A stretch of 64,000 nucleotides of DNA from a virus (IMGVR_UViG_3300035698_014689:1-64000), one strand, 5' to 3'. Counted from the first letter of the stretch, positions 1 to 62,221 are shown. Numbers and translations are program-made. The notes: a model not told the origin generated them from the letters alone.

Positions 1-302
1 AATGCAAGTCGTTTTAAAATTATTTTCTCTTAAATTTTCCAACCACTTTTTTATTGGCACGATTGCACTTGCGTGCATTCACATGATCAGACTCCTCCGA
101 ACGAGTTTGTACATCCTTAACCGACTTCCCATAACGTCTTTCCTGCTTAGTCATCATCCACTCCTATTTAAACGACTATTTAAAAACATGACCACAGCCC
201 ACGAATATGCACACAAACCACATACATGCACACACACGCATGAGCTGGGATCATTCTTTAAATGATTTTTTTCATAATACACCTCCTCCTTTTATTTTCT
301 TT

Positions 303-578
303 TCAGGCTCCCTCTGTCTCCTTTTCCATTTGATTGATCAATTCCATAGCTTCCGTAAAATCCCTCCCACAAATATCAAGCATTGCAGGGAAAGAACCAC
401 AGACTCTAGGCCTATCAGGACTTTCAAATAAATTACAGAGATTCTTTTCCGTCAAGTGCACACAGCGTTCTCCAGCTTTCTTCCCTTCAGGTAATGCAGG
501 AAAGGCAGGACTAATACTGATTGCTATACAACAAGCTCCACAGGCCCTGCATTCTAATCTGTTTGCTTTCTCCATCAT
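303..578 (-). CDS. YkgJ/YeiW-family cysteine-cluster (Zn/Fe-chelating) protein
   Basis: CRACGACC...GERCVHL...CNLFESPDRPRVC...C pattern; GGGGAGG RBS. Confidence 0.85.
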   Translation of the reverse strand: MMEKANRLECRACGACCIAISISPAFPALPEGKKAGERCVHLTEKNLCNLFESPDRPRVCGSFPAMLDICGRDFTEAMELINQMEKETEGA

Positions 579-590
579 TTCCTCCCCAAA

Positions 591-827
591 TTATCTACCA
601 TTTTTCAAATGTCTCAGCAGTTTCCATACTTTATAGTCAGCCACTCCCTCGACCTCACTGAAATCCAACTTCCCGAATACTTCCAAGATTTCATTACACT
701 CCACCTCGGAACCACCGAACACAGTGTTCCAGTTTCGATACTTGTCCTGCTGTTCCACATGATGCGTGTTAACTAGACTTGGATACTCCATCTTACTCAC
801 TTTCCTGTCAATGATGTGCTTACTCAT
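591..827 (-). CDS. hypothetical protein
   Basis: ORF with AGGAG RBS, co-oriented with neighbours. Confidence 0.6.
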   Translation of the reverse strand: MSKHIIDRKVSKMEYPSLVNTHHVEQQDKYRNWNTVFGGSEVECNEILEVFGKLDFSEVEGVADYKVWKLLRHLKNGR

Positions 828-999
828 CTTTTACTCCTATTTTAAAATGCTCCACAATCACGAGGTCTCACAGTATAAATTTGTCTGATGGAACGATTCA
901 ATATGATCCAGCCCACAGCATCAGCTCTGTTCTTTGCTGGTATCACAGTGCGAACCATTTCACCAGCCCCGTCCATATATCGTACAGTCCAACTCATCA

Positions 1000-1100
1000 T
1001 TTCCTCCTATTTAAAAACATAAAACACATTTCACATACAGAGAATATACGTGTATCAAAAACATTTACAAGTACTGAAACTAACAAATTTCTTTTATTTT
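1000..1100 (-). promoter_or_regulatory. phage promoter/leader motif, copy 1
   Basis: AT-rich UP tract, GTACTTGTAA, TTGATA, TATTCTCTGTATG, then TTTAAATAGGAGG RBS; closely similar to 15193-15290. Confidence 0.6.
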
Positions 1101-1946
1101 TAAATAGGTGTAATCCTCTTTATATAATAGGGAGGGAAAAACAAACAACACACACGAGCAAAAATTTTAGAGGATAAGACTTTTATAACTCTGTGTGAAC
1201 ACGTTTGGTTTATTGATCCACAGTCCAGTCCAGTAACAACGTCTCAGTACGTGCCCTTACGTTCAATCAACATCACACAATTTTATACTTGCCCTTACGT
1301 GCCCTTACGTTCCAGAACGGTTGATGAAATAGTCTAACGTATCACTCTATCGATTGGCAACCAGAAAAAAAACAAAAAAACAAAAAAAGAATAAAGGTGC
1401 TTAGTTACACCTCGGATCGTCTCCTAAAATAAATGGGCATCTCTCTCATATTTTCACTCTCATCGGAATCGTATCACATCATTCACTACACTATATATAG
1501 TAGGTCTATGTCGTCCCATACGTAACAGACGGTACAGATCAACATATAAAGTTATACGAATACGTGCTCGATGTTGTTACAGACAGTACAGAACGGAACA
1601 GAACTACATATGGTATAGTCTAAACGTAGCGAATAGAAGAGAGAGAGAGATAGAAGGAAAGCGTTCGAGAGAAAGTATACTTAGTGATACGACGTCCTTA
1701 TGACGATGCAGGCATAGCATAGCATACACAACGTATCCAACGTATGATCATCTCAATAGTCATCAATATATCATCATCAATAGTATCTCTATCTCTATAT
1801 AGTTATAAGTCATACCGGCCCACGTACTCTAGTCATAGTCATATAGTCATGCCTCCCGCCCTTAGCACCATATATGTGTGTGCAAGAGCATTCTTTCGAT
1901 ATGTCGTATTCGGCCTTATCAGCTTATGTCATCATCACCGCAATGT

Positions 1947-60027: not shown

Positions 60028-60037
60028 TTGAATCACC

Positions 60038-61000
60038 TCAGATAGATTGAATTTCCTTGATGACTTTACCAAGGCGCTTGTCAATAAACCACTCGACTAA
60101 AGAGCAGAAATCATCAGCAAAGGATAAGGTCTCGGCCTTCTTTTCGTCATACAGAAGAGGGCCACACTTTTCAACTACTTCAGGATTGCATATATCGCTC
60201 AAAATCATAGGATATACGTTTGTCAAGTGTGAACAGATAACCATCCACCAACTATGACCGAATTCCTCCGCTGACTTGAAACCTGCTGACATCAATTTAT
60301 CAGCCCTGTTTCTCCAGAAAATTTTCAGGATTTCTTTTCCCGCGAAAGTATGCTGATCGAGTGCTGTTATCATCATCCCGTCCTTCTTCTTATCACACAC
60401 CTCAAATTGAATGGCATCCACTGGAGCCAGACATCCCTGACGTTCCGAGCACTCCAAGATGTAGGGAAGGAAAAGGGACTGCTTCTCATAATCCCACTTA
60501 TTAAAACAACGTTCGCAAAAATCAACTAAATCAGCATCATACCCCAGCTCCCTATAAATACTGAAACTTCCCTCAAGCAAACCACGCTTCATAAGGTATT
60601 GCAACTCCTCGGGAAATTTCTTGGATAAAGCCGTTTCATTATTTGCATTATAAGCGAGGGAAGAGAGCTCACGGGACTTTGGAGCGCCACAGAGTGAAAC
60701 GATCCACTGCTCTAATTCAGACCAGTTTTCTGAGTTGGGGTTCTTCTCCCATATTGGAGCGAATGTGGAGCAGACTCCAGCGCACTCCTCGAACATAATT
60801 GTCAACAGTCTGCGCCAAAGTGTGAAAGGATCATACAACCACACCATACGACCATATCGAACAGCGTCCTCAACGTTACCACGTCTAATCGCTTTTTGAA
60901 CGGCGCTTTTGCAGGTATAAAGGGCGGACTTACTGGGTTTCTCAACATCCTTCCATTCAGGGAAGAGATAGGGCTGTACTTTTGTTTCTATCTTACTCAT
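60038..61000 (-). CDS. RarA/MgsA C-terminal-like helical domain protein without ATPase
   Basis: KSAVQKAIRRG..A...WRRLLTIMFEE and ALDQHT motifs; no Walker A. Confidence 0.7.
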   Translation of the reverse strand: MSKIETKVQPYLFPEWKDVEKPSKSALYTCKSAVQKAIRRGNVEDAVRYGRMVWLYDPFTLWRRLLTIMFEECAGVCSTFAPIWEKNPNSENWSELEQWIVSLCGAPKSRELSSLAYNANNETALSKKFPEELQYLMKRGLLEGSFSIYRELGYDADLVDFCERCFNKWDYEKQSLFLPYILECSERQGCLAPVDAIQFEVCDKKKDGMMITALDQHTFAGKEILKIFWRNRADKLMSAGFKSAEEFGHSWWMVICSHLTNVYPMILSDICNPEVVEKCGPLLYDEKKAETLSFADDFCSLVEWFIDKRLGKVIKEIQSI

Positions 61001-61064
61001 TTCATTCCTTACTTTATATGACGATCACACCAAATAGGATAAACTCTGTACACTGAAATACAAG

Positions 61065-61823
61065 TCAGTCATCCGTTTTTGTTCTTGATATTGCGATGCT
61101 CTCTATTTTGCGTAATAGAAAGAACTGCTTGTCCGTGAGATAGCCTCTTTGCTCGAAGAAGTTAAGAAAATCAACAATGATTTTTCGTTCCTTCGTGTCC
61201 AACGCTTTACTCATAGAGTTAACAGCATCCAGCTTCTCCTTCACATCACTGCCAGCTTTTCGTAATGTGACAGGATCAATCAGCTCATCACCCTCACGTT
61301 TCATCATAAGATATTTTCCGCACTTGTTATTAAATGCGGCGACTTGTTTGGTGGTTGGAGTCTGCCCCTCTTTAGCAATCTTTCTGTGGAGGTCGGACAA
61401 GAATGAATCCTCACTGCCGTTATCCAAAGTATATGAGCCATCGTTGAACTCACAGAGGTTCTTGAAAAACTCAGGTTCGGCCATTGACAAGTCCTCAAGG
61501 AAAAACGCCAAGTCCTCCTCGGTGTCACCGTCTAATTTCGGTCTTCTTAATTTCTCATCCATCTCCTGACGAGCCTCCTCGGAGGATAAGAACATAACAT
61601 CCTTCAAAATCTGCTTGTATTGATCATCGGAAACAGTTTTCTCTAAACACTCCAAACAGAGCGTGACTGGAATCGCATCGTGGTCTGATTCATCTGAAAC
61701 AAAATAGCAGGCGGCTGACAAGACAACTAGATCAAAACATGCCTCACATTTCAGTGACTTCTGTTTCACATTCATTTCAAGGACTTCGAGGCCCGTCAGA
61801 GCCTCAATCAATTCATTGCTCAT
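61065..61823 (-). CDS. hypothetical protein with CxxC pair
   Basis: CEAC...LCLEC; two F(L)..(L/F)......T.KQ repeats. Confidence 0.65.
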   Translation of the reverse strand: MSNELIEALTGLEVLEMNVKQKSLKCEACFDLVVLSAACYFVSDESDHDAIPVTLCLECLEKTVSDDQYKQILKDVMFLSSEEARQEMDEKLRRPKLDGDTEEDLAFFLEDLSMAEPEFFKNLCEFNDGSYTLDNGSEDSFLSDLHRKIAKEGQTPTTKQVAAFNNKCGKYLMMKREGDELIDPVTLRKAGSDVKEKLDAVNSMSKALDTKERKIIVDFLNFFEQRGYLTDKQFFLLRKIESIAISRTKTDD

Positions 61824-61840
61824 TTTCCAATTTCCTCCAA

Positions 61841-62221
61841 TTAAATAAAGTTTCTCCTGACTAACTGATCAGTCATCCAGATGATCTTCACTGGCTTATT
61901 CAACATAAAAACATGATCAATCATACCATCACGGGTAAGACGAATCTGCGTATAAAAACCATCAGTAGGAGCTTTTATCTCCGTGTGTAGAGCACCTATG
62001 GAATGATCCTCATCACGAAAGAATAAAAAACCCAGTCCGTGCAATCGAGTGCACTCGATCTTAGCCCTTTCCGCAAACTTCGGCCACATCGCAATCTGTG
62101 ACTCTGTTTTCGGAACGACTTTTTTTGGATAGGGATCAGCCAAAACTGCGAAATTCTCATCAACGGGTTTCGACGAATAAATCTGCACACACTGACCATC
62201 TTTGTTCTTATATATTTTCAT
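61841..62221 (-). CDS. hypothetical protein
   Basis: ORF with GAGGAG RBS; contains palindrome 62039-62054. Confidence 0.6.
   Translation of the reverse strand: MKIYKNKDGQCVQIYSSKPVDENFAVLADPYPKKVVPKTESQIAMWPKFAERAKIECTRLHGLGFLFFRDEDHSIGALHTEIKAPTDGFYTQIRLTRDGMIDHVFMLNKPVKIIWMTDQLVRRNFI

Follow-up and report, generated by a model that had tools for sequence, protein, structure and literature searches.

A 16-bp near-palindrome repeated along an uncultured phage genome and its relatives as a candidate operator array of a phage-encoded DNA-binding protein

What is the role of a short dyad that recurs throughout a phage genome, within genes as well as in the gaps between them? This question is raised by the first 64 kb (64,000 nt; the window) of the viral contig IMGVR_UViG_3300035698_014689 from IMG/VR (94,886 bp, linear, ~79% complete; labeled G000), in which a 16-bp element with TGCA in both arms is found repeatedly. 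An original prediction, made from the window's sequence, regarded the copies as binding sites for a dimeric phage protein, acting either as dispersed roadblock operators or as parS/Noc-like loading sites. The motif is enriched, is conserved throughout a clade of phages, is switched in sequence in one lineage and is placed upstream of -35 boxes in relatives. With moderate confidence, drawn from these sequence patterns, the near-palindrome would be the site of a phage-encoded dimeric protein that binds double-stranded DNA, and its copies would form a genome-wide operator array controlling phage transcription.

All 14 copies of TGCA-N6-TGCA that had been listed for the window were recovered, with cores starting at 64, 1948, 2420, 6034, 6567, 9876, 13488, 21333, 34385, 41638, 46660, 56572, 58933, and 62040, compared to 0.90 ± 0.82 copies (maximum 3) in dinucleotide shuffles. 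Perfect GTGCA/TGCAC arms in eight copies (0.01 expected) and a pyrimidine-purine (YR) center in 14/14 were likewise confirmed; the center is CA or TG in 11 copies, TA in two and CG in one. In the whole contig 21 sites were counted and three for the reversed-pattern control, and order-3 and order-5 Markov simulations of the contig resulted in 1.2 sites (maximum 5-6). Ten sites are located in coding sequence compared to 1.6 in synonymous codon shuffles, and none of 300 shuffles reached ten. Since the motif exceeds both the Markov and the codon-shuffle backgrounds, the lack of enrichment that the original prediction had named as speaking against itself was not found. With a position weight matrix (PWM), 22 sites were identified in the contig, approximately one every 4 kb, of which 11 are located in the 12.5% of the DNA that is non-coding (P = 2e-5). 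As claimed, copies 6567, 9876, 13488, 34385, and 46660 lie in short gaps ahead of genes.

On the coding (minus) strand the consensus reads a-G-TGCA-C-T-Y-R-A-T-TGCA-C-k; the site can be written as GTGCACTTGATTGCAC and its symmetric form as GTGCAATCGATTGCAC. The CRP-like 5-N6-5 geometry suggested earlier was replaced by a 16-bp near-palindrome of 7-2-7 geometry with the half-site GTGCA(A/C)T, as GTGCAAT-YR-ATTGCAC fits better. The repeated dyad was thus retained and the description as a true palindrome was not: most sites have a downstream half near ATTGCAC, and in the upstream half C is usual in place of the A required by symmetry (position 5 is C in 13/21 sites on the coding strand, with the mirror G in 2/21). 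ATTGCAC is found 22 times on the coding strand (5.8 expected), and its reverse complement, found 8 times (5.0 expected), is not enriched. When the half-sites of G000 were tallied by hand, the strong half was downstream in 15 sites and upstream in four, and two were symmetric. Direct repeats of the form ATTGCAC-N3-ATTGCAC make up copies 13488 and 65094; at 13488, where the left arm is also ATTGCAC, this gives a 10-bp period. The flanking positions have base preferences without covariation. As the 16-bp near-palindrome contains two half-sites, a dimer is implied.

Relatives were found by scanning viral contigs for the exact consensus, after which sites were counted in whole records. By core count, G001 (16.4 kb) has 22 sites and G002 (173 kb) has 16; by PWM scan, G003 (98.6 kb) has 14 and the complete G004 (100 kb) has 26. 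Ten sites were counted in G012 (24.8 kb) and 51-55 in the complete G013 (85.4 kb), and reversed-pattern controls were 0-1 in all of these relatives. G000, G003, G004, and G013 have a syntenic replication module and head genes in common at only 22-55% protein identity, each with all or nearly all genes on one strand and with GC contents of 43, 51, 58, and 63%, respectively; motif-bearing phages overall range from 42 to 65%. Judging from these genomes, the array is apparently a character common to a clade of ~100-kb phages, with lineage-specific variants. Sites are spaced more evenly than random in every genome tested (coefficient of variation 0.48-0.71), with P < 1e-4 for G004, 0.004 for G013, 0.012 for G001, 0.026 for G003, and 0.07 for G000. 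Intragenic copies make up 19/26 in G004 and 36/55 in G013, and intergenic enrichment is strong in G000 and G001. In G013 the half-site orientations (26, 19, and 10) are without bias. Near relatives of G000, wanted for synonymous-site conservation, were found neither by megablast nor with the terminase protein; it has no close relatives among cultured phages, and its major capsid protein is ~28% identical to that of Streptomyces cluster-BE phages.

In G013 (L172-L176), a sigma-70-type promoter is repeated 26 times on the coding strand, with ac(c/t)(g/a)c-TTGAC(G/A)AAC followed after ~17 nt by GAGA(A/C)T, also written as TTGACGAAC-17-GAGAAT. In 14/26 of these promoters the motif precedes the -35 box by 5-10 bp (once by 20 bp), being centered at ~-50 and found in both orientations. 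G013 promoters without the motif often directly follow a terminator, and the motif-bearing ones are clustered over a block of small, non-conserved genes. The same layout was found in G004 at 44468 (motif, 6 nt, TTGACA-17-CATAAT) and in G001 at 4634, the sole strong promoter there, and in G000 the motif at contig position 65094 abuts a -35 box (Table 1). Class I operators of KorB are also located just upstream of -35. TTGACAAAC-type -35 boxes were found in G004, G001, and G000 too.

According to the proposed mechanism, a phage-encoded dimer would recognize the 16-mer (G)TGCA-[A/C]T-YR-AT-TGCA(C), of which G000 has ~22 copies. Promoter-proximal copies (65094 in G000 and 14 in G013) would modulate initiation by the host RNA polymerase from ~-50. 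Because of the near-consensus -35 boxes, the site at the putative binder's own promoter and the clustering over small genes, repression or timed shut-off with negative autoregulation is slightly preferred over activation. Intragenic copies, as well as those that follow a stop codon and precede the next ribosome-binding site (RBS), might provide extra nucleation or roadblock sites that dampen read-through, which would fit their orientation bias and even spacing. Such stop-to-RBS junction copies are also located outside the window at 85502 and 90014. In G000 the motif precedes the ATG by 9-50 nt, the RBS being distinct from it and located in between, and downstream of copy 6566 the space is too short for a promoter. 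A 342-aa protein with a lysine-rich tail and a helical domain resembling a helix-turn-helix (HTH) would autoregulate from its own motif-bearing promoter.

The array might instead act mainly on the DNA itself, with the copies as nucleation sites for organizing, condensing, partitioning, replicating or marking the chromosome, as in Noc, SlmA or MatP systems, and with gene gaps merely tolerating insertions. Even spacing in every genome tested, the many sites inside genes of G004 and G013, and the histone-H1-like tail and ParB-family-like DNA-binding domain of the 342-aa candidate would agree with this, and with all genes and a strong GC skew in a single direction, the strand bias could reflect the direction of replication. 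However, the exact and recurrent position of the motif 5-10 bp ahead of -35 boxes in G013, G004, and G000, the conserved placement before one gene and the strong intergenic enrichment in G000 and G001 make this role unlikely.

The array sequence itself bears on the origin of the binder. In one lineage it is replaced wholesale by a TCCA-type variant, TCCAAT-YR-ATTGGA: G024 (102 kb) has 81 TCCA-type and no TGCA-type sites, and the related G025, G026, and G027 have no TCCA-type and 18, 37, and 16 TGCA-type sites, respectively, their controls also being 0-1. In L187 (G028), which encodes a protein of the 342-aa family, yet another 16-bp palindrome, CCGCACACGTGTGCGG, was counted five times within 20 kb (<0.1 expected). 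A host transcription factor co-opted by the phages, for example of the LacI/PurR/CytR type, would couple phage expression to host physiology. LacI/GalR-type operators are 14-16-bp palindromes, TGNAANCGNTTNCA, with a central CG, and the consensus of the relatives, TGCAAACGTTTGCA in G027 and TGCAATCGATTGCA in G001, fits this pattern. Moreover, the same palindrome is clustered in unrelated bacterial integrative islands, and G001 has the array and no obvious regulator. Nevertheless, the array switches completely between related phages (81 versus 0 copies) and a range of 42-65% GC implies very different hosts, and therefore a co-evolving phage protein is favored. The center is CG in only 1/14 window copies of G000, mostly being CA/TG, and no phage LacI-family protein was found, PF00356 giving only sub-threshold matches (11-19 bits compared to a 27-bit cut-off) to generic small HTH proteins and the tail of an HNH endonuclease. 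A host factor is thus considered quite improbable.

In a scan of bacterial genomes (596 Gb) for the perfect palindrome, matches were mostly single, as chance predicts, and no host regulon was identified. Clustered matches, considered as a host regulon or prophages, turned out to be unrelated small integrative islands (with P4-type integrase, Rep-like and HTH_17/AlpA-like proteins) that carry GTGCAAT-YR-ATTGCAC in clusters of 2-5 (L098, L102, L106, L146, L153, L155, L069, and L151), their hosts including Rhodospirillales, Acidobacteriaceae, Methylobacterium and a Bdellovibrio metagenome-assembled genome (35-63% GC). Reyranella genomes were recurrent among the single matches.

As many of the G000 copies and almost all of those in G001 are located from stop to RBS in one orientation, the motif could also be a hairpin in polycistronic transcripts, serving as a processing site, a stabilizer or the site of a translational regulator just upstream of the RBS. 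Predicted hairpins are modest (20-mers from G000, G001, and G003 fold with -5.8 to -7.1 kcal/mol). In the first 5 kb of G003 (L045), at least five type II hammerhead ribozymes were identified at 318-4152 (Rfam RF02276, 39-50 bits), and in three more repeats that share their CGAAAC...GTC...CTGATGAG core the motif is the apical hairpin capping one stem. In L190 (G024), the right arm is TTGGAG or TTGGAC and many copies are located 4-25 nt before start codons (for example at 5629, 17249, 18203, and 18658); from its sequence, the Shine-Dalgarno-like TTGGAG could double as a Shine-Dalgarno element that is masked in RNA by the left arm CTCC. On the other hand, the 14 promoter copies of G013 lie upstream of promoters and in both orientations, and G004 sites combine one perfect half-site with a degenerate partner that keeps only the outer GTG (GTGACAT, GTGTAAT, GTGAAAT) and breaks pairing, so that a stem of at least 5 bp can form in only 14/26 (mean free energy -2.8 kcal/mol). 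Sequence and not pairing is kept from 42 to 65% GC, and no Rfam family matched. From the promoter placement, the unpairable half-sites of G004 and the flanks without covariation, a protein site on double-stranded DNA is favored over an RNA hairpin, which is very unlikely.

Regarding the binder, the site behavior agrees with the proposal of a dimeric, probably phage-encoded DNA-binding protein used genome-wide, whereas the proteins that had been named were not supported, and nothing was found that points to the suggested connection with DNA modification or packaging. For the ribbon-helix-helix-like pair at 10691-11103 and the winged HTH at 15322 (15322-16104), the relatives contain no homologs, and Pfam matches were sub-threshold at most. 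The 75-aa protein at 4739 with a GRP arm and an HTH belongs to a very large family with a generic three-helix fold (1,745 representatives, many with tandem repeats) and is found in G000 and, as paralogs, in G004, and not in G013, G012 or the enriched loci. A homolog search returned only the protein itself and a search of related loci returned none, giving no link to the motif. The module of GRP arm and HTH was also found as 5-15 tandem copies in metagenome proteins of 400-1,600 aa (P0002, P0008, P0012, and others). Furthermore, the SLOG/YspA protein (2434-2784) was rejected: it is the best-conserved protein in common with G003 (48%), but its SLOG domain is nucleotide-binding and it is absent from G004 and G001. 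The G003 ortholog (21865-22169) is split over two frames by a frameshift or sequencing error.

Based on gene placement and a structural model, the conserved 342-aa protein encoded at contig positions 63692-64720 is tentatively put forward as the most likely binder. Among the 12 ortholog groups common to G000, G004, and G013, its gene is the sole one with a close upstream site in all three, at 380 nt (with a 50-aa open reading frame (ORF) between), 78 and 89 nt, respectively (~1e-3 after correction), and in two of the three genomes this site is 6-9 bp from a -35 box. In G013 the gene forms its own promoter-gene-terminator unit, and its reading frame in L190 is closely preceded by a promoter, TTGCAT-17-TAAAAT, with the variant motif abutting it. 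Of 13 viral loci retrieved solely because they encode a family member, five have strong TGCA-type arrays (12, 10, 7, 5, and 3 sites compared to <0.7 expected) and two have variant palindromes; unbiased dyad searches in relatives without the array gave no replacement motif. The family has ~100 members and no Pfam domain, and the N-terminus of the protein is rich in lysine, alanine and proline and histone-H1-like. In the AlphaFold model (mean predicted local distance difference test score (pLDDT) 49), residues 124-242 (pLDDT ~47-83, >60 from ~residue 130) align by VIA-align with the DNA-binding domains of ParB-parS, Spo0J, KorB, KorB-operator, SopB and VirB structures at Z 4.7-7.6 (6s6h 7.6, 1vz0 6.8, 8qa8 6.7, 1r71 6.1, 3mkw 5.3, 3vwb 4.7). 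Arg172, conserved as Arg in 94/101 family members, opens a putative recognition helix, and only in the TCCA lineage is Arg172-Lys173 replaced by Ser-Met. In lineages without Arg172 the density of the TGCA array is 4-12 times lower, but a few genuine T/A-flanked copies remain.

The ParB-N domain protein (54668-55444), for which the copies had been proposed as parS/Noc-like loading sites, is probably not the binder. A 16-bp palindrome has the format of parS, homologs of the protein are encoded in G012 and G013, and two copies in G013 are located 14 and 68 nt before the start codon of its ParB-N gene (38975-39799). However, among G000-G004 the domain is present only in G000, being absent from G002, G003 and the complete G004 with its 26 sites, and no phmmer match was obtained at E < 1. 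Furthermore, the sites are dispersed and not clustered, and the gene directly precedes TerS and TerL in G000 and G013; a ParB-like gene beside terminase genes is a common packaging-associated context. ParB-N loading is therefore regarded as highly improbable.

Other classes of elements were mostly rejected. A sigma-70 promoter at every site would not agree with the number of promoter-like sequences (25 compared to 25.7 expected), none of which coincides with a window copy. In sigma-54 promoters (TGGCAC-N5-TTGCA) the -24 GG and the -12 GC are spaced as GG-N10-GC; in the motif the GG is replaced by TG and the GCAC-to-TTGC spacing is one base short, the junction copies leave no room for an RBS-carrying transcript, and the AAA+ protein at 13514-14908 is of the MoxR/CbbQ type. 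For a promoter of a T7-type polymerase or a phage sigma factor, no consistent -10 box follows the motif, and PF00940 and PF04542 matched nothing in G000-G004, the PF00940 result being weak because its control matched in no genome. An intrinsic terminator, which would be a GC-rich hairpin with a T-run behind it, was dismissed as no T-run follows the motif on the coding strand, copy 6566-6581 having been picked up on the non-coding strand only.

Several points weigh against an operator array read by the 342-aa protein. Clearly promoter-adjacent sites in G000 amount to 1/22, and therefore a transcriptional role is an extrapolation for most copies of the window; the even spacing, together with the many intragenic copies of G004, would suit a non-transcriptional role too. 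Approximately 5/12 distinct loci encoding the 342-aa protein have no array in the DNA sampled, G001 has the array and no candidate binder in its 16 kb, and the protein and the motif may co-occur from shared ancestry alone. The unrelated Raf1 ranks first in the structural alignment (Z 8.0), and according to the tool this Z range is non-specific for helical domains. At the sequence level, Pfam, PDB profiles and hhalign gave no support for a ParB/KorB fold; a ParB-N/CTPase match was not obtained, and the hhalign probability to the ParB-N proteins of the clade was 0.1%. Finally, a sub-branch without Arg172 retains genuine TTGCAAT-YR-ATTGCAA copies (8 in 125 kb compared to 1.4 expected), and as these copies remain, the TGCA core is not read simply by Arg172.

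The copies and features of the window are listed in Table 1, gene maps being our own calls from ORFs and codon usage.

Table 1. Motif copies, candidate binder genes and identified genes in the window, with features cited from the rest of the contig and from relatives.
Feature	Position	Strand	Context
Motif copy, core TGCACTTGCGTGCA on plus strand, imperfect flanks	64-77		Gene-poor stretch, contig end
Motif copy, perfect arms	1947-1962		Gene-poor 1.0-2.4 kb stretch
Cluster of full copy 2419-2434 and three lone strong half-sites	2319-2434	-	Full copy just past SLOG gene stop
Lone half-sites GTGCAATTAAG, TTGATTGCAC, CTGATTGCAC	~2401-2411, ~2359-2368, ~2319-2328	-	Around AT-rich stretch
Motif copy	6034-6047		Within ORF 5719-6114
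Junction copy, perfect arms	6566-6581	-	9 nt past upstream stop, 14-17 nt before RBS/ATG of next small ORF
Junction copy, perfect arms	9875-9890	-	13 nt downstream of intrinsic terminator, ~27 nt before ATG of ORF 9464-9846
Rho-independent terminator, 9-bp stem and T-run	9908-9929	-	Directly upstream of copy 9875
Junction copy	13488-13501	-	21 nt before ATG of 786-aa VWA (CobT-like) gene
Motif copy	21333-21346		3' end of ORF 21276-21941, 65 nt before start of 1219-aa glycosyltransferase gene
Junction copy, perfect arms	34384-34399	-	7 nt past upstream stop, ~48 nt before next start codon
Motif copy	41638-41651		Within 987-aa GT9-GT4 glycosyltransferase gene
Intergenic copy, perfect arms	46659-46674	-	127 nt before 658-aa gene; extra half-site GTGCAAT at ~46609
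Motif copy	56572-56585		Within ORF 55939-57096
Motif copy, perfect arms	58932-58947		Within ORF 58567-60084
Motif copy, perfect arms	62039-62054		Within ORF 61841-62221
Candidate binder gene (342 aa), 3' part	63692-64000	-	Extends to contig 64720
Candidate binder promoter TTGACT-16-TATTTT	contig 65055-65110		Beyond window; motif copy abuts -35 box
ParB-N domain protein	54668-55444	-	Not conserved across motif-bearing relatives
75-aa protein, GRP arm and three-helix HTH	4739-4966	-	Weaker candidate binder
Terminase	52428-54110		Gene identified in window
Portal with intein	49628-52414		Gene identified in window
MuF-like protein with intein	46921-49626		Gene identified in window
Tape-measure protein	26991-31121		Gene identified in window
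Large glycosyltransferases (two)	17607-21266 and 40409-43372		Genes identified in window
MoxR-VWA pair	13514-14908 and 11105-13465		Genes identified in window
G013 promoter copies, examples	35648, 30075, 17021		
G003 hammerhead repeats with motif	1030-1105, ~2200-2280, ~4700-4780		

By gene content, G000 is a tailed phage with nearly all genes on the minus strand and a GC skew of ~-0.2 throughout. Past the window, a replication module encodes RecA with two inteins, an SNF2-type helicase, a family A DNA polymerase, primase, DnaB, ligase and MazG, and also a radical-SAM protein. A tRNA scan and an Rfam scan of the window were both empty. At 1000-2430, a 1.4-kb gene-poor stretch with G-rich runs contains no minus-strand ORF of at least 50 aa and has no Rfam match; it might be an origin, encode a non-coding RNA or consist of decayed genes. 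This stretch is bounded by the half-site cluster 2319-2434, which may be a control region or origin. No tyrosine integrase was found in G000-G004 (G000 being ~79% complete), and a serine recombinase was found in G002 and G003 only.

The whole 16,452-bp contig of G001 (L039) is taken up by a head-tail module (genes for terminase, portal, protease, major capsid, tape measure and HNH endonuclease), with the motif at nearly every gene junction, mostly from stop to RBS and in one orientation, and with a single strong promoter. As its supposed direct terminal repeat is the motif itself, G001 could represent a break in the assembly or a small circular element, or else a satellite-like or gene-transfer-agent-like, helper-dependent element relying on the regulator of a helper phage.

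A further-reaching idea, which is held to be doubtful, is that the 342-aa protein is a regulator of phage 'chromatin': an autoregulated protein with a ParB/KorB-HTH-like domain, an H1-like tail and no CTPase would silence or time the whole program from 20-80 sites, about one per gene or operon, with co-evolution of protein and site. If true, the mutually exclusive TGCA and TCCA arrays could serve co-infecting phages and G001-like satellites as an immunity code or for self/non-self distinction. Genome-wide arrays of short sites are known in a few mycobacteriophage clusters, and of those only stoperators are understood. New here are an array across a deep, uncultured clade of ~100-kb phages, promoter evidence at the DNA level, a switch in specificity and an unannotated candidate family. 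From the array, a new family of global phage regulators could be defined, and it could supply orthogonal protein-operator pairs and give a handle on the transcription program of uncultured phages.

Stoperators of cluster A mycobacteriophages, bound by L5 gp71, are likewise present in more than 20 copies genome-wide, at promoters and in short intergenic gaps (PMC9283540). The asymmetry in G000 and G001 is also biased with the direction of transcription, but it is partial, and it is absent in G013. Stoperators are 13-bp asymmetric sites of temperate phages, essential in orientation and bound by a two-domain monomer (PMC9283540), whereas the site described here is a 16-bp near-palindrome that implies a dimer, no integrase was found in G000, G001, and G004, and promoter copies are located upstream of the -35 box and not over the promoter. 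In plasmid RK2, the palindromic operator OB of KorB is similarly reused across one replicon (PMC11790492); global silencing from promoter-near and promoter-distant sites is proposed in both cases, and the candidate domain is KorB/ParB-like by a weak structural match. KorB belongs to the ParB family and forms a sliding CTPase clamp, the locking of which depends on KorA or TrbA (PMC11790492), whereas the 342-aa candidate has no detectable ParB-N/CTPase domain or ParB sequence similarity and would act on 20-80 copies per genome.

In cluster O mycobacteriophages, the 17-bp palindrome TGTTCGG-N3-CCGAACA is found in more than 30 copies, ~40% of them intergenic and others near the 5' ends of genes (PMC4351075). 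It is also a short palindrome that is distributed genome-wide, conserved within its cluster and of unknown function; however, its 7-3-7 arms are invariant and no orientation signal, promoter association or candidate binder is reported. It is confined to closely related phages, whereas the present array spans very divergent genomes and includes a switch in specificity. The SAS elements of cluster K directly precede the starts of many genes, mostly with the same orientation, are conserved across subclusters and have no known binder (PMC3203893). These SAS/ESAS elements are 13 bp long and non-palindromic, contain a Shine-Dalgarno core 3-7 bp from the start and are restricted to the non-structural half of the genome (PMC3203893). 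In contrast, the motif is separate from the RBS, with a Shine-Dalgarno-like arm only in L190, and is found over the whole genome, also within genes and upstream of promoters. The features that define these systems, namely the length and symmetry of the site, a monomeric two-domain repressor, a CTPase domain and a Shine-Dalgarno-containing element 3-7 bp from the start, were not found in the present array. By analogy, the stoperator and parS/Noc/KorB comparisons of the original prediction suit the probable mode of action, which appears nearest to the cluster A stoperators and KorB/OB; as a phenomenon, the array would most resemble that of cluster O and, less closely, the SAS of cluster K.

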